A stretch of DNA of 64,000 nucleotides from positions 1 to 64,000 of the IMG/VR virus record IMGVR_UViG_2718218135_000001, one strand, 5' to 3'. A program made the position numbers and the translations under genes. The notes under the pieces were generated by a model. It searched no databases and had not been told where the DNA came from. It saw nothing but the letters and a program-made list of their open reading frames with translations. Positions 3,732 to 49,235 of the stretch are shown here, in pieces. Numbering within the stretch: position 1 is the first letter of the stretch; the number at the start of each line of letters is the position of its first letter. Source of the stretch: a virus. Lineage: Duplodnaviria; Heunggongvirae; Uroviricota; Caudoviricetes.

Positions 3732-3903
3732 TCTACACTCGCGGCATTGGAAGCAAAGATATGGTCGTCTGGCACCTGATGCACATTGATAAGGCTATCA
3801 ACCACACGCTGGAGAAGTTCTTTCCACCAGCCTGAACACAATGATTGTGCGCCTTATAGCGCCCATTAAGATAGATAAGTACTTACCAACAAGGAGAAAA
3901 CAC

Positions 3904-12691: not shown

Positions 12692-13257
12692 AAAAAGTAA
12701 TCAAAGTTGCAGGTCTCGATCCATCTCTGTCAAATTTTGGCGTTGCCATCGGAGAAATAGAACTGGATTCAGGTGCATTGCAGGTCAATAAGTTGCATCT
12801 CATTGAGACGAAAGCTGGTGATACGAAAAAGCAAGTTCGCGTTAACAGTGACGATATGCGGCGGTTGAACGAGATTTGGCGTGGTATTAAGCCACTGATT
12901 GACCAAGTTCATTTAGTGTTCTGCGAACTGCCAGTAGGCAGTCAATCTGCTAGAGCGATGGTTTCTTATGGTGGTTGTCTTGGCGTACTGGCGTGTGTGG
13001 ATAAGCCACTGATACAGGTCACGCCAAACGAGATTAAGTACTATGTCGGGAATAAGCTGACTACGTCGAAAGAAGAGATCATTCAGTGGGCTACGCAGAA
13101 GCAGCCAAACGCCCCGTGGTTGCGCCGGAAGCAATCGGGCAAGGAAGTGCTGGTGAATAAAAACGAGCACCTTGCGGACGCTGTCGCATCGATTTACACC
13201 GGTATGCAAACTGATCAATTCCGTCAGGTTCGCGATGTTCTTGCTGGAATTTTATAA
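12688..13257 (+). CDS. RuvC-like Holliday junction resolvase
   Basis: N-terminal VAGLDPSLSNFGVAIGE and C-terminal HLADAVASIY RuvC-type motifs; GTG start. Confidence 0.6.
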   Translation: MKKVIKVAGLDPSLSNFGVAIGEIELDSGALQVNKLHLIETKAGDTKKQVRVNSDDMRRLNEIWRGIKPLIDQVHLVFCELPVGSQSARAMVSYGGCLGVLACVDKPLIQVTPNEIKYYVGNKLTTSKEEIIQWATQKQPNAPWLRRKQSGKEVLVNKNEHLADAVASIYTGMQTDQFRQVRDVLAGIL

Positions 13258-13293
13258 GTTGATAATTGATAGGTAAGTGCTTATCTATTACCA

Positions 13294-13322
13294 TGAGACC
13301 ACTATATATAGTGGTCTTTTTA
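13294..13322 (+). terminator. rho-independent terminator
   Basis: gagaccactatatatagtggtc hairpin followed by TTTTT. Confidence 0.6.
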
Positions 13323-13522
13323 ATTGGGCTACACATAATAAGCATCGTAAAACGTAACGCCCACCGAGCCGCTGCCAGCTGCATGAAGCGCTGACAAAGT
13401 TCGCTGTCGATTGCACTGGCCCGAGCCAGTTCGAATACCTCTAAGCCGAGTTTAACCACTTTGTGGCCTGGCGCTGCTGGGTCAAAATTGGCGTATCAAA
13501 AGAAGTCTAAAGGAAAGAAAAC

Positions 13523-14401
13523 ATGAAATTTACGAAACTGACCGATCATCTGAAACTTGCCGCAGACAAACTCGTGGGGTTTAAACCAGAGCCTTACGAG
13601 TTGAATCCCGGTTTCGGCAAGACAACGGAAAGCATCTACCTGATGGTTGACCAGTTCCACACACTGTTTCAGCACCCACGCCGTGCCATTCCAGATCCGG
13701 CATTACTGCGTCTGCGTGCCAAGCTGATCCACGAAGAAGCAGTTACCGAGGGCATCCCGGCAGCCAAAAATGGGGATATGACGGCACTGCTGGACGCGAT
13801 GGCTGACTTCCTTTACGTGGGCGTCGGCACAATGGTGGCCATCAAAGGCGGCATCTCGACGGGCATGAGTTACTACACCCAAGAGCAGAGTGTTGATTGC
13901 TTCATCCACACCATCATGGTTCCGGGCAACACGGTCTTTGACGATATGGCTATCCCGTTTGAAGAAGCAAAAGAAGCTGCATTAATGCTGAATGCGCTGG
14001 CTGACAAACTTGAAGCGAAGCCGATAAGCGATTCCGAATTGGTGCAGGAGCTGCGCCGCGTGATGAACAAAATCTACGTTGCCTGCATGATGACCTACCG
14101 TCTGGCTGATTTTCTCGGAATCGATATTGTTGAGCTGGTGGCAGAAATCCACCGTTCCAACATGACCAAGCTGTGGCCGGCTGACGCCGAAGAGCGTCGT
14201 GTGGCGGTAGAGAATTGCAAATACGATAAGGAAGATCTGGGGTTCCGCCATGCTGAAGGGACTGACATGATGATCGGCTTCAGGATTTCTGATGGCAAGA
14301 TCCTCAAATCTCCCACCTACAGCGATGTGGATCTGACTTGCTTTGTTGAGAAGGCGAAGTCCTCATCTCTTTACGAGATGGTAAAAAATAATTGTAAGTG
14401 A
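13523..14401 (+). CDS. MazG-like nucleotide pyrophosphohydrolase (putative)
   Basis: N-terminal all-alpha region with EE/D-rich motifs typical of MazG/HisE-type NTP pyrophosphatases; weak, by eye. Confidence 0.35.
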   Translation: MKFTKLTDHLKLAADKLVGFKPEPYELNPGFGKTTESIYLMVDQFHTLFQHPRRAIPDPALLRLRAKLIHEEAVTEGIPAAKNGDMTALLDAMADFLYVGVGTMVAIKGGISTGMSYYTQEQSVDCFIHTIMVPGNTVFDDMAIPFEEAKEAALMLNALADKLEAKPISDSELVQELRRVMNKIYVACMMTYRLADFLGIDIVELVAEIHRSNMTKLWPADAEERRVAVENCKYDKEDLGFRHAEGTDMMIGFRISDGKILKSPTYSDVDLTCFVEKAKSSSLYEMVKNNCK

Positions 14402-20017: not shown

Positions 20018-20133
20018 CAGTCTGGGAGTTAGTTTGAGAACCTGCTTCCGTATATATAAATAACTAAGTACTAATTATTAATATATACAGACGCAGGCTT
20101 TTTAAGAAGTGATTTCCAAACAACTCCCAGACC
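20018..20133. repeat. ~115 bp nested imperfect palindrome (paralogue of 45534-45630)
   Basis: Outer arms agtctgggagtt / aactcccagacc, inner arms aacctgcttccgtatatat / atatatacagacgcaggctt, centre ctaagtactaa. Confidence 0.6.
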
Positions 20134-40485: not shown

Positions 40486-42045
40486 TTACTCTCTATCCAA
40501 AACAGTGAAATCGAATGTGCTGCCAACCGGCAAGACCCCCTCGGCAAACCCAGGCGTCGTGTCGATAATGTGTTTCCGCTCATATGAATGCGACATGAGG
40601 TATTTGTTGCTCACGTCGATGAAGTCGGTAATAAAGCACACGTTAGCCTGATTTTTCTTGGCTCGTAAGCCACGACCGACACGCTGTCTCATTTCAACTT
40701 CTGCTTTCCCGCCACCACCCAGAATCACCGCGCCTACGCTTGGAACGTCGACACCAACATCCAGAATGGTTGAACCAATGAGAACATCTATCTTGCCTGC
40801 CGCCAGACTATTAAGTTTTGCTTGTCGGGTAGTCTGGTTTGATTCTCCGTAGATGAAATCGACCTTGAGGCCACTCTCTTTCATCATTTCCATCAAGATC
40901 TGACCATGACGCTTCAGACGAACCAATGTCATACAGTTCAGACCGTGACTCTTGTACATTAGCGCTTCACGCACAATAGCTTCGTTGCGGCCCAGATTAT
41001 AGACGATGCCTAACTGATAGGCTTTCTGGTAAGCCGTGCTCATTCCAACCCTAAAATTCAGGTGTTTTGAAGCAAGTTCGGCTCTAATCCGCGTCTCATC
41101 TGGAGTGTACGCGATTTTATGATATAAAAAGTATGGTTTCGCTAAAATACCTCTGTCGATCAAATATTTCTCCGTTACTTTTATCTCGATGCGACCCGCA
41201 ACGGCCATGAGACGCATATTTGCTTCAGTCGAGTCCTTCATGAACGGCGTAGCTGTCAGCGCCAGACGGTAGTCGGCATTGGTACACAACCGGGCTATAT
41301 CGTAGAAGTTTGAGCCGGATGATTCGTGCGCTTCTTCCAGAATCAGCAGAGAAACGCTGGACAGGAAGCGCTTAACCAATTCCCGGCGTTTCAGGTGATA
41401 CTGTTTTTTCTCTGGAGATGCGTCGCGCGACGGCTCTTCGAGAAAACTAGCAAGGGTCTGAACCGTGGCAACGTTGATATGGCGCGATACCTGAAACTCA
41501 CCAGATCCAATCACCCCAACTTTCTGACCTTTCAGCCACGGCTCGCCATTCTTCGCGCGGTAGTCGATGGATTTCTGGAAGTTCTCTGCCATCTGGAACA
41601 TCAGAACCGAGCGCGTGGTTAAAAACAGCGTCATACGACCAATGCGAGCTGCTGCCTTACACGCTACGTTCGATTTACCGCCACCCGTCGCAATCTGGGC
41701 AATCATCATCCCTTCGCGCACCAGTGTTTCCACTGTCTGATCCTGATACGCGTAGTCCGGGTTATACGGGAATGGATTAACCACCGGATTCGGCTTACCC
41801 AGCGCGGGAGCTTTTTCCTTGCGAACATGCACGCATTTGATGCCAGCTTTCAGAAGATTGGTCGCAACTGGCTTCGCAAACCCAGCCGGGAACGCGTTTT
41901 TACTCCAGTTGAACATCGTGCTGGTCCCTTTCCAGTCACCAGCCTCCACTTCATAGCTCAACATCTCCTGAACAAGCCGTTTCACGTTGTCATCAGCGCC
42001 AGAAATCAGCGCATTGACTGCATTTGATACAATCCGAACAGTCAT
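40486..42045 (-). CDS. SF2 DEAD/DEAH-box helicase (UvsW-like)
   Basis: Motif I ATGGGKS, II LEEAH, III LTATP, VI QRVGRGLR; 519 aa. Confidence 0.7.
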   Translation of the reverse strand: MTVRIVSNAVNALISGADDNVKRLVQEMLSYEVEAGDWKGTSTMFNWSKNAFPAGFAKPVATNLLKAGIKCVHVRKEKAPALGKPNPVVNPFPYNPDYAYQDQTVETLVREGMMIAQIATGGGKSNVACKAAARIGRMTLFLTTRSVLMFQMAENFQKSIDYRAKNGEPWLKGQKVGVIGSGEFQVSRHINVATVQTLASFLEEPSRDASPEKKQYHLKRRELVKRFLSSVSLLILEEAHESSGSNFYDIARLCTNADYRLALTATPFMKDSTEANMRLMAVAGRIEIKVTEKYLIDRGILAKPYFLYHKIAYTPDETRIRAELASKHLNFRVGMSTAYQKAYQLGIVYNLGRNEAIVREALMYKSHGLNCMTLVRLKRHGQILMEMMKESGLKVDFIYGESNQTTRQAKLNSLAAGKIDVLIGSTILDVGVDVPSVGAVILGGGGKAEVEMRQRVGRGLRAKKNQANVCFITDFIDVSNKYLMSHSYERKHIIDTTPGFAEGVLPVGSTFDFTVLDRE

Positions 42046-42109
42046 AAACCTCTTTCCTTCGTGCCTTTTGTATGGTAATTGGCTATTATGTTAAGTAAGT
42101 ACTTACACA

Positions 42110-42808
42110 ATGGATTGTATCAAAAATATGGATGTGAAAATTACGATTCTACAGGTGGAAGTCGCGAACCTGCGTCCGAACCCCTGGAATACCAACTCCG
42201 TTGGGGCGCAAAACTTCGAAAAACTGAAAGGTTCCATCGAAAAGTTGGGCTTTTTTAAGCCAATTCTGGCGCGAGAGCTGGACGGCGGCATTTTTGAGAT
42301 TCTCGGTGGCGAACATCGCTGGCGTGCCGCGATGGAGCAGGGCATTTCAACGGTTCCCGTAATGTCGGTGGGAAAAATTAACGACCTGGTGGCCAAACAG
42401 ATGTCTCTCGTCGATAACGAGCGCTACGGCGAAGACGATCAGATCGCTTTGCAACGCTTAATCGAAGAAATTCAGTCTGAAATTGACTACCGGTTGTCTG
42501 ATATCGCCCCGTATGACGACGAAATGGCGGCAACGCTCGCCAAAGCATCCGTTATCGATCTTGAAGCGCTGGAAGCGCTCTCCCGCGGCGATGACGAGCC
42601 GGTCGGTGAGGACAAACGCGAGAAAATCGAGCGAGTCGGTGCTGAACACCAGACGATGCGCTTCAAGGTGACGTTCGATGCGTCAGATCGCGTCGCCGAT
42701 ACCATCAAAACCATCATCAAAGAGCAGGGAATCAATACCGGTAACGAAATGGAGAACGCCGGGGAAGCCTTGGTGTGGCTGGTCGACTACTACAAGGAGC
42801 GTATGTAA
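42110..42808 (+). CDS. ParB N-terminal-domain (ParB/sulfiredoxin-like) protein
   Basis: LRPNPWNTN and ILGGEHRWRAA motifs of the ParB nuclease-like fold; acidic C-terminal half. Confidence 0.55.
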   Translation: MDCIKNMDVKITILQVEVANLRPNPWNTNSVGAQNFEKLKGSIEKLGFFKPILARELDGGIFEILGGEHRWRAAMEQGISTVPVMSVGKINDLVAKQMSLVDNERYGEDDQIALQRLIEEIQSEIDYRLSDIAPYDDEMAATLAKASVIDLEALEALSRGDDEPVGEDKREKIERVGAEHQTMRFKVTFDASDRVADTIKTIIKEQGINTGNEMENAGEALVWLVDYYKERM

Positions 42809-43476
42809 TGACCAAGAACTTTGAAATCGTATATCGAAACCCGGCAGAACTTATCCCGTATGAGATGAACGCCAAAAAACATGACGAACAGCAGATCCAC
42901 GACCTGGCGGCTGCCATCAAAAAGCGCGGTTTTGACCAGCCGATCACGGTCGACAAGCACGACGTCATCATTACTGGTCACGGTCGTCGCGAGGCGGCAC
43001 TTCTGGCTGGTCTGGAGCGTGTGCCTGTCATCGTTCGCGACGATCTGAGCGAAGAAGAAGTGAAGGCGAAGCGTCTTGAAGACAACCGCCTGGCCAGTAT
43101 TGACTACGACGCCATCAAATTGCAGCAGGAACTGGAGTCCCTGGTGCTGGGTGACGTTGAGGTCTTTGGTTTTGAAGAGCGAGAGCTGAACGTGCTTGTT
43201 GGCAGCATGACCGAAGAGATGGAAACAGGCTCTCTGGTGCTCGATCTGGGTGAAGAGACGGAACGCCAGAAAGAAGAGCACACCGAGATCAGTCGCGAAG
43301 TGGCCTCTGAAGAAGTCCGAGTCATCGACGTATTGGGCTTTAAAACGCTCCCTGCTGGCTCTGCCATTGTGGTTGGGGATTTGCTTGCCCACATGGAAGA
43401 AATTACGGGAGAAAGCGGGGTAGACGCTTTCGTGGCGTATGCGGAGAAAGTTTCCTCTGGGGAGCTGGCTGCATGA
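42808..43476 (+). CDS. ParB N-terminal-domain protein (second paralogue)
   Basis: ITGHGRREAA motif; start overlaps the upstream stop (TAATG). Confidence 0.5.
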   Translation: MTKNFEIVYRNPAELIPYEMNAKKHDEQQIHDLAAAIKKRGFDQPITVDKHDVIITGHGRREAALLAGLERVPVIVRDDLSEEEVKAKRLEDNRLASIDYDAIKLQQELESLVLGDVEVFGFEERELNVLVGSMTEEMETGSLVLDLGEETERQKEEHTEISREVASEEVRVIDVLGFKTLPAGSAIVVGDLLAHMEEITGESGVDAFVAYAEKVSSGELAA

Positions 43477-44111
43477 GCAAATACACCATCAACGTATCGT
43501 TTCAGACCCGCGTGAACAAAACCACGCGCACGCTGGAGATTGCCGAATCGTTCGGTCTTGGCCTGGACGAAAAAGAGTGGACGCTTTACGACAATCTGGA
43601 GCTGGAAGTGAAGCAGGGCGATGTGGTGTACATCACCGGCCAATCCGGTTCCGGTAAATCCGTTGTGCTGCGCGAGCTGCAACGCCAGATGAAGGATGAA
43701 GGGCTTTCTGTAGCCTCCATCGATGACTTTGCCTTCGACAATGAGGTTAACGTCATTGACCAGCTGGGCAAAACCACCAGCGAAGCGCTGGGGCTGCTGT
43801 CTATGGCCGGATTGAATGACGCCTATCTCTTTGTGCGTAAGCCATTCGAGATGTCTGACGGCCAGAAATACCGTCTCAAGATCGCCAAGCTGATCGAGTC
43901 CGGCGCGAAAGTCTGGGCTGCCGACGAATTTGGCGCTGTTCTCGACCGTGTAACCGCCCAGGTTGTGGCGTCGAACCTCCAGCGTGCCGCCCGTAAGGTT
44001 GGTGCGACGGTAATGGTGGCGACGACCCACGAAGACCTGAAGAACGCGCTGCGCCCGGATATGCAGATCACCAAGCACTACAAAGAACGCGTGAAGGTGG
44101 AATATGCCTGA
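43473..44111 (+). CDS. compact ABC-type ATPase
   Basis: Walker A GQSGSGKS, signature-like SDGQKYRLKIA, Walker B VWAADEFGAVLD, H-loop-like TTHE; 212 aa. Confidence 0.55.
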   Translation: MSKYTINVSFQTRVNKTTRTLEIAESFGLGLDEKEWTLYDNLELEVKQGDVVYITGQSGSGKSVVLRELQRQMKDEGLSVASIDDFAFDNEVNVIDQLGKTTSEALGLLSMAGLNDAYLFVRKPFEMSDGQKYRLKIAKLIESGAKVWAADEFGAVLDRVTAQVVASNLQRAARKVGATVMVATTHEDLKNALRPDMQITKHYKERVKVEYA

Positions 44112-44358
44112 TTTGAAGATCGTAGAGCTGAAGCCATCGAAAGAGGCTGACAACAACAACGTTGAAGTCATCCGCCTGCTGGAAGAAGCACTCCAGTACG
44201 CCAGAGAAGGCAAAAGCCAGAGCCTGGCACTGCTGATGATCAACAACGACGGCAGTGTGCTGGATTGCTGGCATAACGGTGGGCGTCCATACGTCATGGT
44301 TGGGGCGATAGAATCGCTTCGCCTGGACTTCATCAATGCCAATATCGAGCGTAGGTGA
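44104..44358 (+). CDS. hypothetical protein
   Basis: 84 aa ORF overlapping both neighbours. Confidence 0.4.
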   Translation: MPDLKIVELKPSKEADNNNVEVIRLLEEALQYAREGKSQSLALLMINNDGSVLDCWHNGGRPYVMVGAIESLRLDFINANIERR

Positions 44359-45254
44359 TCGACATGACAGGCATCATCATCAAACGCTACCGCCCGGAAG
44401 AGTTCCCGCGTCATCTGGACTTTCTGGAGCGTATGACCGTTACCAAAGGCACGGTTGAAGACTGGCACGCGCTGAAGTCGCTGCACTACAAGACGGATGG
44501 TAAGCCGTTTGCGCCAACGTATTATCGCTGCGAACTGGACGACCGGCTGGTGGGCGTCGTGGTTATGGCTTACCCGAAACTGCTGCTGGCGCCTCGCCAT
44601 CGCATGTTTCCTAAGCTGAAGCCAACCACCAATACCACCGTGGCCAACCAGTATTGGGGGCGGTACGTGAACAACAACTTTGCGGTGATCAGCCGTTCCG
44701 TTGTGGACACTCAGTACCGCGGTGTCGGCGTCTCCTATCGAATGATTAACCTGGTTAGCAGGATGCATAACCGGCCAATCATCGAGATTCAGTCGTCCAT
44801 GAGCAAATACAACCCGTTCGCCATGAAAGCAGGGTTCCAGTTCATACGTCCGGAGCGTCCGAAGAGCTATGAGAGTGCGTTGCGTGTTTTCCAGCGCCAT
44901 TTTCGCTCCGACCCTGGAGACAACGAAGCGATCGTCAAAGAGCTGTTCGCCATGAGTGAGTCTCGCCGTCGTCGTGCGCTGCGCGATCTGGTCGCGGACT
45001 ACCACAAGAACAGTTCCCTGGCCAAAGCCGGGCGTAATCGTGGCACGACGATTCAGGATATTGCCGACAGTCTGGTGGACGAGGCCAGCATCGTGAAGTT
45101 GCTCAAGGATATTCACAACCTGAGCTTCACGTCTCCGCTGTATGGCGTGTATCGAAACCCGGACTTCGGTCGTCAGTTGCCTGACACGCTGCCACTGCTG
45201 GCATTCGATAAGCAGCCTTTGAATAAACCTCTTGAAATTGCATTACCGGCATAA
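44355..45254 (+). CDS. GNAT-like acetyltransferase-fold protein (putative)
   Basis: Motif A-like YRGVGVSYRMINLV and motif B-like NPFAMKAGFQF; start may be GTG 44355 or ATG 44364. Confidence 0.4.
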   Translation: MIDMTGIIIKRYRPEEFPRHLDFLERMTVTKGTVEDWHALKSLHYKTDGKPFAPTYYRCELDDRLVGVVVMAYPKLLLAPRHRMFPKLKPTTNTTVANQYWGRYVNNNFAVISRSVVDTQYRGVGVSYRMINLVSRMHNRPIIEIQSSMSKYNPFAMKAGFQFIRPERPKSYESALRVFQRHFRSDPGDNEAIVKELFAMSESRRRRALRDLVADYHKNSSLAKAGRNRGTTIQDIADSLVDEASIVKLLKDIHNLSFTSPLYGVYRNPDFGRQLPDTLPLLAFDKQPLNKPLEIALPA

Positions 45255-45263
45255 GGATTTGCC

Positions 45264-45530
45264 ATGACGTTGACCGATAAACAAAAAGACATCATCAAAA
45301 CCATCAATTTAGGCCATGAGCGTGGGTATCTGCTCGATCTGGACGAGCTGCTTGAGGTTCTGCCGTACAAAACGACCAAACAGAGTATGCAGTTCTCTAT
45401 CCGCGCACTGGTGAAAAAGGGGCTGGTGGAGAAGGGAATGTGCCGCCAGCGCGGCGATTCAGGTTATCACCGTCGCACGCTGGGACTGACCACGTTAGGT
45501 CGTGCAAGAGCCAAATTACTGGTGATGTAA
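45264..45530 (+). CDS. small winged-helix-like DNA-binding protein (putative)
   Basis: 88 aa, basic C-terminus; weak assignment. Confidence 0.3.
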   Translation: MTLTDKQKDIIKTINLGHERGYLLDLDELLEVLPYKTTKQSMQFSIRALVKKGLVEKGMCRQRGDSGYHRRTLGLTTLGRARAKLLVM

Positions 45531-45533
45531 ACC

Positions 45534-45630
45534 GGTCTGGGAGCCAGATTAAGAACCTGCTTCCGTATATATAATTAACTAAGTGATTAATTAAATATAT
45601 ACGGAAGCAGGTTCTGAAGGCTCCCCAGCC
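45534..45630. repeat. ~97 bp nested palindrome (paralogue of 20018-20133) just upstream of terS
   Basis: Perfect 20 bp inverted repeat gaacctgcttccgtatatat / atatatacggaagcaggttc around a 22 bp AT-rich centre; outer arms ggtctgggagcc / ggctccccagcc. Confidence 0.65.
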
Positions 45631-45726
45631 CGATTTTAAACACCCAGAAAACAAATTGGTTAGGCACAGAATTAAACAAGTTGTTTAGGAGCGCAAGGAT
45701 GCGCTCTGAGTGTTTTAGAGGGACCT

Positions 45727-46368
45727 ATGACTGTAGAAAAAGACGAGAGCAAAACTCGCCTGACACCAGCTGAGTGGGCAGAAGCCGAAGCGAAATGGAC
45801 TTCTGGCGAATACACACTCTCCAGGCTGGAGGAAGAGTACGGCATTCGTCGTGAAACGCTCTCCAGACATTTCAAAAAGCGTGGATTAGAGAAAGGCGCG
45901 GACTCCGTTGGGAAGATGGTGCGCGAGTCGCTCAAATCCGACGCAGAGCTGCGTGCGAAGGCGCGTGCAGAGAAAATCGAAGAGCGCCGGACTCGTTACG
46001 ACGATTGGGCGTTCGCACTCGGTCGTATGGTGATGCATGAGGTGGCCATAGCCAAGAAGGACGGCAGGCCACTGGCAGCCATCGAAGATGACCTGAAGAG
46101 TCTCCAGCGTGCCAGCGGCACACTTGCTAAGTGCTTCGAAATATCGTCGAAAGCGCTCGGTATGGATCGCGTGGAGAACGAGGACGACGAAATCCCGAAC
46201 CTGGTATTTGGCGAACTTACGCCTTCCCAGGTGGCGCAGCTGCGTAAGGAAGATGATGAGCCGGATCTGATTGATGACGATCTGCTTGAGTCACTCGAAG
46301 AGGAAGCACTGAGCGAAGCTGAGGGCGATTCTGAAGCGTCTGGTGATGAAAGTGATGGGAGCGTCTGA
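45727..46368 (+). CDS. terminase small subunit (putative)
   Basis: Position immediately before TerL; HTH-like N-terminus, acidic C-terminus; two AAACAA-N-TTGTTT motifs upstream. Confidence 0.5.
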   Translation: MTVEKDESKTRLTPAEWAEAEAKWTSGEYTLSRLEEEYGIRRETLSRHFKKRGLEKGADSVGKMVRESLKSDAELRAKARAEKIEERRTRYDDWAFALGRMVMHEVAIAKKDGRPLAAIEDDLKSLQRASGTLAKCFEISSKALGMDRVENEDDEIPNLVFGELTPSQVAQLRKEDDEPDLIDDDLLESLEEEALSEAEGDSEASGDESDGSV

Positions 46369-46370
46369 CT

Positions 46371-47627
46371 ATGGCCATCCCGTCGTCTCTGAGTCTCGTA
46401 CAGCTGCATTCTGGGCAGATGCAAGTCTTCCAGTCGCCACATCGTTTCAAAGTGGTGTGTGCGGGTCGACGCTGGGGTAAATCCCGGTTGTCGATCTCCA
46501 CCATCATCCGCGCGGCAGCCAAAGAGAAGAAGCAACGTGTCTGGTATGTCGCACCGACTTACCAGATGGCTCGCCAGATCTTGTGGGATGACCTGCAGGA
46601 AGTTCTGCCGCGCAAATGGGTTCGTAAGAAAAACGACACCACGATGACCATCGTGCTGAAGAACGGCTCTGAAATCGCGCTGAAAGGTGCGGATAAGCCC
46701 GATACGCTTCGTGGTGTGGCACTGCACTTTGTGGTGCTCGATGAATTTCAGGATATGAAGCCTGACACCTGGTACAAGGTACTGCGTCCGACACTGTCCT
46801 CCACCCGTGGCGGTGCGCTGATCATCGGTACGCCAAAAGGCTTCTCCGAGTTCCACAAGCTGTGGACTATCGGTCAGAACAAAGATTTGCAACGCAAGGG
46901 GCAGTGGAAGAGCTGGCAGTTCGTTACGGCCGATTCTCCGTTCGTACCGAGCGCGGAAATCGAAGCAGCGAAGAACGATATGGACCCTAAATCGTTCGCA
47001 CAGGAATACCTGGCCAGCTTCGAAAACATGTCCGGACGCGTTTACTACCCGTTCGACCGCAATGTGCATGTGAAGCCACTCCAGTTCAATCCGAAACTGC
47101 CGATCTGGGTTGGTCAGGACTTCAACATCGACCCTATGTCATCGGTCATCCTGCAACCGCAGCCAAATGGTGAACTGTGGGCTGTGGACGAATTGGTGTT
47201 GTTCTCTTCTAACACGGCTGAAGTGTGTGACGAGCTGGAGCGTCGATACTGGCGCTGGAAATCTCAGGTCACTATCTTTCCTGACCCGGCAGGTGCGTAT
47301 CGCCAGCACGCACGCGGCGAATCTGACGTCGACATCTTCAAAGAGAAAGGTTTCCTTCGAGTCGATTATCCGAAGAAGCACCCGCCGATCGCAGACCGTG
47401 TTAACGCAGTGAACCGCATGTTGATGAGTGCCTCGGGCGAAACCCGGTTGTACATCGATCCGAAGTGCAAACACCTCATCGACTCGCTGGAGAAGGTGAT
47501 CTACAAGCCAGGCTCACGCGATATGGATAAGACTGGCGGCATCGAACACAGTGCGGATGCGTTGGGTTATCCGGTTCATCGTAGGTATCCGGTGAAAAAT
47601 CGTGTTATTCTTGGTGGATCTAGATAG
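46371..47627 (+). CDS. terminase large subunit
   Basis: Walker A VVCAGRRWGKS, Walker B HFVVLDEFQDM, C-terminal RNaseH-like acidic motifs (GQDFNID, VDEL, FPDPAG). Confidence 0.75.
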   Translation: MAIPSSLSLVQLHSGQMQVFQSPHRFKVVCAGRRWGKSRLSISTIIRAAAKEKKQRVWYVAPTYQMARQILWDDLQEVLPRKWVRKKNDTTMTIVLKNGSEIALKGADKPDTLRGVALHFVVLDEFQDMKPDTWYKVLRPTLSSTRGGALIIGTPKGFSEFHKLWTIGQNKDLQRKGQWKSWQFVTADSPFVPSAEIEAAKNDMDPKSFAQEYLASFENMSGRVYYPFDRNVHVKPLQFNPKLPIWVGQDFNIDPMSSVILQPQPNGELWAVDELVLFSSNTAEVCDELERRYWRWKSQVTIFPDPAGAYRQHARGESDVDIFKEKGFLRVDYPKKHPPIADRVNAVNRMLMSASGETRLYIDPKCKHLIDSLEKVIYKPGSRDMDKTGGIEHSADALGYPVHRRYPVKNRVILGGSR

Positions 47628-47642
47628 GTAAGTACTTACCTA
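47625..47642. promoter_or_regulatory. Perfect 18 bp palindrome TAGGTAAGTACTTACCTA between terL and the portal gene
   Basis: Exact palindrome directly after the terL stop, 19 bp before the portal ATG. Confidence 0.5.
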
Positions 47643-47660
47643 AGCGGAAAGGAAAATCAA

Positions 47661-49235
47661 ATGGAATTGACTGACAAGCAAATCAAAGACCTTGTGGCAC
47701 GACGCCACCCTGAATATGAGAAGAAAAAAGAACATTGGGACTTCCTCGCCAGCACCTACGCTGGCGGGCGTGCCTGGTTCAACGACAATATCTTCCGTTA
47801 CTTCAAAGAGGGCGATCAGGAGTTCAAAGAGCGCCTGGAACGCGCTTATCGCTTCAACCATACGCGCGAAGTGGTAAACCTCATCAACAAATACCTCTTC
47901 AAAGAGGTCATTCACCGCAACACTGATGAAGCACCGGAGCAGATCCGCAATTTCTGGAAGCGAGCCACGCGCCAGAACGCCTCCATCGATGCGTTTATGG
48001 CGGCTATCGATCTGCAATCATCCATTTATGGCCGTATCTGGGTTGTCGTGGATAGCACGATGAACGTCGATGTTGAGTCTGTTGCAGACGAGAAGAAAAA
48101 TGATGCGCGTGCCTACGCTTACTGGATTTCGCCGCAGCAGCTGCTTGATGTTGCCTGGGATGAAGACGGCAATATGTTGTGGGCGCTGATTGTTGAAATC
48201 GCGCGCGACGACGAAGATCCGTTCACTTCAACCGGGCAGGAATACCAGCGTTACCGTCTGTGGACGCAAAACGAGTGGTATCTGTTCCGTGAAGAAGTGA
48301 AGAAGGGTTCCGGAAATAGCGGTCGCCGTCAGGCCAAAGTCGTTCTGGAGGATAGCGGCCAGCATAATCTGGGCGTGGTGCCGGTGTTCCCGGTGGATTG
48401 CATTGGTGAAAGCGAGTCTCCGTATTTTAGCCCGTCGTTGATTGACGATATTGCCTATCTTGATCGCGCCGTGGCCAACTACCTGTCGAACCTTGACGCG
48501 ATTATTCAGGATCAGACATTCAGCCAGTTAGCGATTCCGGTTCAGTCCCTGCTGCCGGGCGATGAAAACCACACCAAAGTGCTCGAAATGGGGACAAAAC
48601 GTGTCTTCACCTTCGATTCTGAGAGCGGTAATCAGCCATTCTATCTGTCTCCAGACCCGAAACAGGCTCAGATGATCATCACCACGATTAAGACGGTGAT
48701 TAATGAGATCTACCATTCCGTTGGTGTGGCTGGTGAGCGAACCAAGCAGGATAACGCGCAGGGTATCGACAACTCTTCGGGGGCAGCGAAGATGTACGAC
48801 TTCCAACGTATTAACAGTCTGCTGGTGACAAAAGCAGAGCGCCTCGAAAGGGCAGAACGCCAAATGATGGAGTTGGCTGCGAAATGGATGGGCATCGAAT
48901 TGGATGAAGACCACTCTCTGATCGCTTACCCGGAGAGTTTCGATATTCGTGGTCTGACTGACGAATTTGCCGTCGCTGAGAAATTGTCGCTGTTACAGGC
49001 GCCTGATTCTGTACGTCGTCATCAGATGGAAATGCTCATAGAAAAGATCTTCCCGAATATTTCCGAAGCGATGCAAAAGGAATTTAAAAAAGATCTCTTG
49101 AAATTTCCTCTAAAAAATGCTCCTGATGCCCTTGAAAATAAGTTAGTACTTACTTATGATCGCGATACAGTCCAAGGAAGCGGACAAGATCAACCCCGAG
49201 GGAATGGGGACTCATCTACTCAAGAGACCGAGTGA
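47661..49235 (+). CDS. portal protein (putative)
   Basis: 524 aa ORF directly after TerL, no NTPase motifs; assignment by position and size. Confidence 0.55.
   Translation: MELTDKQIKDLVARRHPEYEKKKEHWDFLASTYAGGRAWFNDNIFRYFKEGDQEFKERLERAYRFNHTREVVNLINKYLFKEVIHRNTDEAPEQIRNFWKRATRQNASIDAFMAAIDLQSSIYGRIWVVVDSTMNVDVESVADEKKNDARAYAYWISPQQLLDVAWDEDGNMLWALIVEIARDDEDPFTSTGQEYQRYRLWTQNEWYLFREEVKKGSGNSGRRQAKVVLEDSGQHNLGVVPVFPVDCIGESESPYFSPSLIDDIAYLDRAVANYLSNLDAIIQDQTFSQLAIPVQSLLPGDENHTKVLEMGTKRVFTFDSESGNQPFYLSPDPKQAQMIITTIKTVINEIYHSVGVAGERTKQDNAQGIDNSSGAAKMYDFQRINSLLVTKAERLERAERQMMELAAKWMGIELDEDHSLIAYPESFDIRGLTDEFAVAEKLSLLQAPDSVRRHQMEMLIEKIFPNISEAMQKEFKKDLLKFPLKNAPDALENKLVLTYDRDTVQGSGQDQPRGNGDSSTQETE

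Follow-up and report, generated by a model that had tools for sequence, protein, structure and literature searches.

A core operon of SSU5-like phage-plasmids, upstream of the terminase genes, is built around a predicted split ABC ATPase-acyltransferase

The 64,000 nucleotides of viral DNA analysed here (positions 1 to 64,000 of IMG/VR virus record IMGVR_UViG_2718218135_000001, hereafter the window) belong to an E. coli phage-plasmid of the SSU5/pHCM2 type. The closest plasmid records are E. coli elements of this type, with 97-98% identity, and Salmonella phage SSU5 is 96% identical at the DNA level over window positions 42000-45593. Upstream of its terminase genes, the window carries an operon of tightly overlapping genes on the + strand (42110-45530), which encodes two ParB-like proteins, a compact ABC ATPase, a small open reading frame (ORF), a protein with a GNAT fold and a small basic protein. 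Our comparative analysis shows this to be a core lytic-cycle operon built around a putative split ATPase-acyltransferase, whose two halves are encoded by the ABC and GNAT genes.

The operon and its two-part ABC-GNAT enzyme

The genes of the operon are the following (aa, amino acids; pI, isoelectric point; PF and phrog numbers denote the family models matched, with E-values):

42110-42808, + strand: ParB-like protein 1 (ParB1), 232 aa; PF02195 E 1.1e-13; phrog_723 E 1e-84; pI 4.6
42808-43476, + strand: ParB-like protein 2 (ParB2), 222 aa; PF02195 E 8.5e-9; phrog_930 E 9e-115; pI 4.55
43473-44111, + strand: compact soluble ABC ATPase, 212 aa; PF00005 E 1.3e-12
44104-44358, + strand: 84-aa ORF; phrog_796 (unknown function) E 4e-46; 8-nt overlap with the ABC gene
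44364-45254, + strand: predicted GNAT-fold acyl-CoA transferase subunit, 296 aa; pI 9.9; alternative GTG start at 44355
45264-45530, + strand: 88-aa basic protein; pI 10; phrog_900 E 5e-48; last gene of the operon

A search with the GNAT family profile against 1.8 billion representatives matched residues ~200-480 of proteins of 450-500 aa, with E-values down to 1e-29, and Pfam finds an ABC domain in front in these proteins and genuine GNAT domains in several of them. The ABC protein of the window aligns over its full length with four such fused ABC-GNAT proteins at 43-49% identity and has in common with them a family-specific N-terminal FGLG motif, while the fused and the split GNAT halves have in common an H-Y-K/R motif, the acyl-CoA loop and a C-terminal YxxWxNP motif. 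Since the fused proteins match both halves, sequence comparison identifies the ABC and GNAT genes as two halves of one enzyme, which is a single polypeptide in other viruses. Homologues of both proteins carry the IMG/JGI name 'ABC-type ATPase with predicted acetyltransferase domain', and one phage record names the GNAT gene 'MK0520 protein'. The fused family probably corresponds to COG2401.

Throughout the SSU5-like lineage the enzyme is encoded in two genes, with an ABC-to-GNAT gap of -9 to ~1540 nt, and the 84-aa ORF sits precisely at the split point. A preliminary description of this locus had counted this ORF among the components of the module. Phage Cyrano, however, has no ORF at the junction, Klebsiella phages carry a 183-aa ORF in its place (L001 6092-6643), and more distant relatives have one to three unrelated ORFs there, for example Phage_gp49_66, RyR and DUF2829 (L003 6961-7999; L007 5052-5907). 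Because it is missing or replaced in relatives and the gap varies in length, we regard the 84-aa ORF as a variable accessory insert. The ABC/GNAT junction is, as a side observation, a hotspot for small accessory genes. The combination of ParB-like, ABC and acetyltransferase-like genes had been called unusual, and these genes do stand together; they are better described as two sub-modules, the split ABC-GNAT enzyme, which is found without ParB in other viruses, and a lineage-specific ParB pair.

As judged by motif comparison, the catalytic motifs of the ABC half are intact and those of the GNAT half are plausible. The ATPase is a classical ABC protein with a non-deviant Walker motif, as had been proposed (PF00005 48.9 bits, cut-off 25), and comprises Walker A (GQSGSGKS), Q-loop (DQLG), signature (SDGQK), Walker B (VWAADE), D-loop (LD) and H-loop (TTH), with most motif residues invariant in an alignment of split and fused homologues. 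The charge of the ABC part is near neutral, its nearest nucleotide-binding domain (NBD) sequences are those of transporters, and its protein cluster occurs on at least 1000 contigs.

The GNAT assignment of the preliminary description also holds: the fold beta1-alpha1-alpha2-beta2-4-alpha3-beta5-alpha4-beta6-7 is present, with a helical insertion of ~90 residues between alpha4 and beta6, and the acyl-CoA loop is kept. This predicted acyl-CoA-binding loop (Q/R-x-x-G-x-G/A) reads R122-G-V-G125-V-S at the pyrophosphate-binding position; R122 and G125 do not vary among 40 sequences, in which the sixth position is S, A or G. The Pfam GNAT model gives the window protein 13.8 bits, below its gathering score of 23.6, and the GNAT profile had zero matches among PDB sequences; distant fused homologues pass the PF00583 gathering score, and one lies slightly below the PF13673 cut-off. 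A strong positive charge runs through this part of the enzyme: 40 split members have a median net charge of +10 and a pI of 9.4, and for 15 of the 16 fused members the net charge lies between +8 and +28.

The gene for the 88-aa basic protein begins 9 nt past the GNAT gene. Its homologues follow the GNAT gene in distant relatives too, and an ORF of ~83-134 aa is found after the GNAT gene in most related loci. Weak LexA_DNA_bind-type matches indicate that the 88-aa protein is probably a winged-helix protein.

The gene calls of the preliminary description needed little change. All five ORFs that it listed were recovered from the ORF list on the + strand at the same positions; the operon, however, does not end there and includes the sixth gene at 45264-45530, which had been left out. 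The translational coupling ascribed to the early genes is reflected in a TAATG overlap between ParB1 and ParB2 and an ATGA overlap between ParB2 and the ABC gene. The ParB2 gene call stands with a different start, ATG 42808 instead of the listed GTG 42775, because of the TAATG overlap with the ParB1 stop and an upstream AAGGAG Shine-Dalgarno sequence. For the GNAT gene, ATG 44364 is the likely start, since it yields the 296 aa of the representative of the GNAT protein cluster (P0001, 1192 member sequences).

Window positions 42000-47700 are ~84% identical in DNA to Klebsiella and E. coli phage-plasmids. In Klebsiella relatives the GNAT protein is 96% identical, against ~84% for the DNA of the region, and this excess of protein over DNA identity indicates that the operon genes are under purifying selection. 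An antisense ORF of 670 aa (43104-45116, minus strand), which runs across the ParB2, ABC, 84-aa and GNAT genes, was rejected as spurious; it is broken into fragments of 405 aa or 232 aa in relatives of ~90% identity. In near-identical E. coli variants (P0027, P0030), part of the GNAT protein is joined to a segment of either ParB_N or ABC; these variants probably arose from the operon by deletion or frameshift.

ParB-like partners, synteny and DNA elements

Both tandem proteins at the start of the operon had been read as ParB-like, and both contain a ParB/Srx N-domain, with 51.5 bits for ParB1 and 35.8 bits for ParB2 against a PF02195 cut-off of 26.3. In PDB alignments they match the CTP-binding N-domain of Spo0J/ParB/Noc/PadC. 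The two proteins are paralogous along their entire length and retain the boxes of the ParB/Srx nucleoside triphosphate (NTP) pocket: GGEHRWRAA, which matches the GERRxRA box, and VDNER in ParB1, TGHGRREAA and EDNR in ParB2. The alignment shows no variation at the predicted pocket residues G67, R70 and N103 across both paralogue families. ParB1 consists of the ParB/Srx N-terminal domain of NTP-binding type, an acidic linker and a small C-terminal domain. Searches with Pfam, NCBIfam and PDB alignments matched the N-domain alone, with no match to a helix-turn-helix (HTH) or to the ParB C-terminal dimerisation domain in either protein, and both are strongly acidic across the lineage (pI 4.3-4.8). 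Their N-domains resemble that of phage ParB-methyltransferase fusions (phrog_498, PADLOC MTase_II, PDLC03229), from which the operon differs in having no methyltransferase domain.

To survey the lineage, 80 viral contigs with ParB2 were retrieved, 65 of which had enough flanking sequence. ParB1, ParB2, ABC and GNAT genes are all present in 64 of these 65 loci, in a lineage that spans identities from 37% to 100%, and the order along the lineage is helicase (- strand), ParB1, ParB2, ABC, optional inserts, GNAT, an ORF of ~90 aa, TerS-like, TerL (terminase large subunit) and portal. The divergent arrangement of the UvsW-like helicase (-) and ParB1 (+) is found in most of the 80 related loci, including L003-L007. 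At ~44% protein identity, gene order is still kept in an Ectothiorhodospira element, marine contigs, Pseudomonas phage nickie, Rhizobium phages of the RHEph10 type and a Xanthomonas phage; in Stenotrophomonas phages, the finding concerns the presence of the GNAT gene alone. These comparisons show a five-gene core operon (ParB1, ParB2, ABC, GNAT and the small basic protein) with a variable insert, which is fixed between the UvsW-like helicase and the terminase genes in SSU5-like tailed phages and phage-plasmids of ~100-120 kb. Relatives also carry tRNA genes near the operon.

The flanking genes and the DNA elements near the operon are:

40486-42045, - strand: UvsW-like SF2 helicase, divergent flank outside the module; Pfam DEAD/ResIII/Helicase_C, PHROG DNA helicase
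42095-42106, no strand: 12-bp palindrome GTAAGTACTTAC, 3 nt before the ParB1 ATG; candidate operator/promoter
45549-45618, no strand: near-perfect palindrome with AT-rich centre, 24-nt arms that are 96% complementary, in the gap between the 88-aa gene and the TerS-like gene
45727-46368, + strand: TerS-like DNA-binding protein, flank outside the module; phrog_867
46371-47627, + strand: terminase large subunit, flank outside the module; Terminase_6N and PHROG terminase large subunit

The operon is thus separated from the TerS-like gene by a gap of 196 bp, and TerL and the portal gene follow. The 12-bp palindrome GTAAGTACTTAC (extended form TAGGTAAGTACTTACCTA) occurs in nine copies at one mismatch or less in the window, against 0.06 expected (positions 3875, 19392, 20450, 22596, 26429, 34546, 42095, 47628 and 49142). 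Most copies are intergenic, following A/T-rich sequence, and lie 10-150 nt upstream of + strand starts. With its copies scattered upstream of many operons, the palindrome resembles an operator or promoter of lytic operons more than it does a centromere. The longer palindrome at 45549-45618 has a second copy ~25 kb away, at 20041-20097, and inverted repeats of other sequence were found in the same gap in four of five relatives examined. Both the SSU5 GenBank record and IMG/VR contig L123 terminate within it. It could be a protein-binding, pac/cos or regulatory site, or a hairpin that breaks assemblies.

In RHEph10-type Rhizobium phages, a ParA-like gene lies ~1.4 kb past the UvsW-like helicase (RHEph10 102550-103179; RHph_N1_15 13062-13691). 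A tblastn search with SSU5 ParA matched about half of the Rhizobium relatives, and Pseudomonas was not listed among the commoner hosts of its matches. Given the Rhizobium matches, not all relatives need be purely lytic, and the lytic-looking phages of the RHEph10 type may be phage-plasmids as well.

Fused ABC-GNAT genes in other viruses

The fused family, with at least 2244 matches, is homologous to the window pair in both halves. It differs from the window enzyme, which is split, carries a variable insert at the split point and has two ParB-like partners: two surveys found a ParB-like neighbour of fused genes in one of 90 and in none of 80 loci, respectively.

Fused genes stand repeatedly among replication and packaging genes. 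In one uncultured viral replication module, the fused gene lies among genes for DnaB, a DHH phosphoesterase, RNase H and GyrB; another lies between class II ribonucleotide reductase and Mre11-like/PolB genes, with RadA and RFC nearby. An in-frame PolB-ABC-GNAT fusion of 1260 aa, which joins a family-B DNA polymerase to the enzyme, occurs in 35 blocks of the collection (P0312; L013/L014 7001-10783). TerL of the Terminase_6N type is immediately upstream of the fused gene in 47 of the 80 best IMG/VR matches. A survey of 80 species-representative genomes, mostly Bathyarchaeia, gave 55 informative loci, among which TerL directly precedes the fused gene in 23 and lies within 7 kb in 40. In Desulfofarcimen and Heliorestis prophages, the fused gene precedes TerL by a few genes, and the genes nearby encode DNA methyltransferases, an OLD-like ATPase, PIN and SocA_Panacea proteins. 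Among further fused variants (P0285; P0274), we noted one with a LAGLIDADG intein inside the ABC domain and one with a C-terminal TFIIB repeat.

Viral contigs often end close to the fused gene. In 32 of 80 contigs, the end lies at most 600 nt downstream; on the upstream side, no contig has its end within 1500 nt. We rejected the idea that these ends represent a physical genome terminus: many contigs stop exactly at the stop codon of the fused gene, which points to provirus trimming in IMG/VR as the source of the bias. The fused gene is the outermost recognizably viral gene in such cases, as in a Nitrososphaerota provirus.

An ASCH-domain gene is present within two genes downstream of the fused gene, on the opposite strand, in eight archaeal provirus loci (L077, L084, L053 and related), and within 7 kb in one Firmicutes prophage (L018 2216-2629). 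The ASCH family includes an N4-acetylcytidine amidohydrolase, and its members are predicted to read modified bases. We consider this neighbourhood a weak lead to the substrate.

Literature searches under the names of the fused family, including COG2401 and MK0520, retrieved no functional study, nor did searches for phage ABC ATPases with GNAT and ParB proteins or for ABC and acetyltransferase genes with terminases in archaeal viruses. The phage-plasmid literature merely lists 'parB, parB-like' for such genes (PMC8085198). All parts of the operon fall into known superfamilies, and public records do annotate its genes, misleadingly, with partition and ABC-transporter names. Undescribed in the literature searched, and in that sense new, are three things: the split ABC-GNAT enzyme, the viral spread of the fused family, and the fixed association of the enzyme with a pair of HTH-less ParB proteins.

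Possible functions of the operon

As our leading but tentative proposal, held with a confidence well short of even, the ABC-GNAT enzyme might transfer acyl groups, gated by ATP, to nucleic acid of the phage at the stage between replication and packaging. ATP binding would lead the ABC subunits to dimerise, as in all ABC ATPases, and the dimer could then position or gate the basic GNAT subunits attached to it on a polyanion. The likeliest such substrate is phage DNA, either late in replication or shortly before it is packaged, and the GNAT subunits would transfer to it an acyl group from acyl-CoA. The acidic, HTH-less ParB/Srx pair might serve as an NTP-binding heterodimeric accessory that targets or restrains the enzyme, and the 88-aa basic protein together with the adjacent palindrome may provide site recognition. 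The PolB fusion, the adjacency to terminase and replication genes, the likeness to ParB-methyltransferase fusions and the precedent of Dpd and Dnd systems make a nucleic acid, most likely DNA, our best guess for the target; the basic GNAT part and the acidity of the ParB-like pair are in line with this proposal.

Known systems provide partial models for such an enzyme. TmcA and NAT10 are ATP-dependent RNA cytidine acetyltransferases and the closest mechanistic analogue, with a P-loop NTPase coupled to a GNAT that acts on nucleic acid. They contain a helicase-type NTPase, TmcA_N and tRNA-binding domains, whereas the NTPase here is of ABC type and no sequence relation is detectable; the ABC-GNAT enzyme could be an ABC-driven counterpart of the helicase-driven TmcA. 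Its position in the genome would resemble that of DNA-modifying enzymes that act late, for example Mom and the ParB-methyltransferase fusions upstream of terminases. The suggested role of the ParB-like pair may be likened to that of DpdB, which acts with DpdA, and of DndB, which acts with the ABC ATPase DndD, both being ParB-like cofactors of DNA-modification systems (PMC12839542, PMC10853773). These systems likewise bring together a ParB/Srx domain of NTPase type and an enzyme that modifies DNA, to which Dnd adds an ABC ATPase; the likeness is architectural only, since the window operon has no TGT (DpdA), DpdC or DndA/C/E, its ABC protein lacks a coiled-coil insert, and its modifying enzyme would be a GNAT.

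Several points weigh against this proposal. The GNAT part is barely more similar to phage Mu Mom, a GNAT-fold enzyme of DNA adenine modification, than to other GNATs: the two show no similarity in sequence, the score in structure does not clearly exceed that of ordinary GNATs, and Mom has neither an ATPase nor a ParB partner. To our knowledge, enzymes of this kind are not known to acylate DNA. A hypermodification pathway was not seen in the phage, where ThyA and DHFR look canonical. Hypermodification of thymidine was considered and rejected, as the ThyA homologue (266 bits), upstream of the ORF at SSU5's annotated DHFR position, suggests an ordinary dTMP pathway. Because fused genes have next to no ParB neighbours in either survey, the ParB pair may have a separate function and share only its location with the enzyme. 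The position at predicted edges of archaeal proviruses and the OLD-like, PIN and Panacea neighbours in Firmicutes prophages also fit an accessory or defence role, and the basic charge of the GNAT part could equally suit the binding of RNA or of the acidic ParB-like proteins.

A bolder form of the nucleic-acid proposal, which we consider rather doubtful, is that the ABC-GNAT enzymes represent an unrecognized class of ATP-driven nucleic-acid acyltransferases with which tailed viruses of bacteria and archaea mark their own DNA. The mark might be, for example, an N-acetylated base that is set late in replication or at packaging, with the HTH-less ParB heterodimer loading or gating the enzyme in SSU5-type phage-plasmids, although this too seems improbable at present. 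If true, it would be a new viral DNA modification, chemically labile and hence easily missed.

It is conceivable, though on balance not likely, that the enzyme is instead an ATP-gated protein acetyltransferase that acts on a phage or host protein between replication and packaging, for example on terminase, portal, SSB or nucleoid proteins, with the ParB-like pair as adaptor or regulator. Viruses of Bathyarchaeia, Firmicutes and Proteobacteria, however, have the enzyme in common, although these groups are unlike in their nucleoid and replication proteins; its GNAT part has a conserved high positive charge, and the PolB fusion suggests DNA instead of any particular protein.

Somewhat less probable still, and in our view unlikely, is a conflict module for anti-defence or superinfection exclusion, in which an ABC sensor would control a GNAT effector by a logic like that of OLD, Gabija or PARIS; the effector might acetylate, for instance, aminoacyl-tRNA, a small molecule with antiviral action or a nucleotide used in signalling. 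The fused genes at predicted provirus edges, the OLD-like, PIN and SocA_Panacea genes near the fused gene in Firmicutes prophages and weak generic matches to defence ATPases are in line with such a role. The contig-end bias, however, reflects IMG/VR trimming of proviruses and no physical end of the genome, the ABC protein is a compact NBD of transporter type and not an OLD-type AAA_15/21 ATPase, and the PolB fusion and the replication-module contexts point elsewhere. The preliminary description had also considered a defence module, which our results do not bear out: the four genes form a fixed core at one position instead of a sporadic island, and PADLOC 2.0 gave no system match. What it did list were MTase_II models, in their ParB_N portion, and generic P-loop matches (mad3, mad8, PtuA), with zero matches for the GNAT subunit and the small ORFs. 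Searches of the five proteins against known terminase accessory (such as the HNH endonuclease of HK97-like phages) and packaging families in Pfam, PHROG and NCBIfam likewise gave generic P-loop noise alone. A role as packaging accessory or in anti-defence is possible.

A TmcA-like RNA acetyltransferase, which would act on tRNA or rRNA and reprogramme translation during infection, has a low probability in our assessment. The precedent of TmcA/NAT10 for an NTPase-coupled GNAT, the basic GNAT part, the ASCH genes within two genes downstream in the eight archaeal provirus loci and the tRNA genes near the operon in relatives would all suit an RNA target. The genomic links of the enzyme, however, are to polymerase, terminase and ParB-like genes and not to translation genes, there is no sequence similarity to TmcA, and the GNAT profile is without a PDB match.

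Plasmid partition, in which the ParB-like pair would segregate the phage-plasmid with the ABC ATPase standing in for ParA, is very improbable. Its basis lies in the ParB_N domain of both proteins, in public records that name the genes ParB or chromosome-partitioning proteins, and in the ParA-like gene a few kb away in Rhizobium relatives. With ParABS, the operon shares the ParB N-domain with its GxxR-type and DN-R boxes; it differs in having no adjacent ParA and no HTH or C-terminal dimerisation domain in its strongly acidic ParB-like proteins. The preliminary description had already judged this not to be a standard partition operon, and rightly so: the adjacent ATPase is a classical ABC protein that belongs with the GNAT subunit, and SSU5 has a separate ParA ~34 kb away. 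This ParA is small and is followed by a 96-aa ORF of a size fitting a centromere-binding partner, the two presumably forming a type Ib-like cassette. Pseudomonas phage nickie keeps the operon, with PhoH and hypothetical proteins and no annotated ParA in the slot that ParA occupies in SSU5. A canonical parS was not found near the operon genes, where two palindromic elements are present, the 12-bp one scattered and operator-like in its distribution and the longer one with two copies.

An ABC transporter or auxiliary metabolic gene, as implied by the PHROGs and GenBank name 'ABC transporter ATP-binding subunit' and by an NBD closest to those of transporters, can be dismissed as the least probable reading, because neither the operon nor its syntenic counterparts in relatives encode a membrane subunit; the scores of all NCBIfam transporter models lie far under the cut-offs, and phrog_886, named an 'ATP-binding subunit', lacks a P-loop and is in fact the GNAT protein.

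Phage-plasmids of the SSU5/pHCM2 type abound in Klebsiella, E. coli and Salmonella, and single-chain relatives of the enzyme occur widely: in uncultured viruses, in prophages of Firmicutes and in proviruses of archaea, Bathyarchaeia among them. Identification of the substrate would annotate thousands of viral genes, which public records now mislabel in the case of the operon, and could possibly reveal a new modification of nucleic acid or protein in viruses of two domains of life. It would also provide a second NTPase-gated GNAT after TmcA and add a role for HTH-less ParB/Srx proteins that is neither partition nor nuclease activity. Some elements of the SSU5/pHCM2 type carry resistance genes, for example CTX-M-15 (PMC8085198).

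In two Firmicutes prophages, the fused gene is followed, just before TerL, by an Amidoligase_2 gene and a GGACT (gamma-glutamyl cyclotransferase-like) gene (L018 10542-12328; L019 10534-12338), a pair which may represent another modification cassette.

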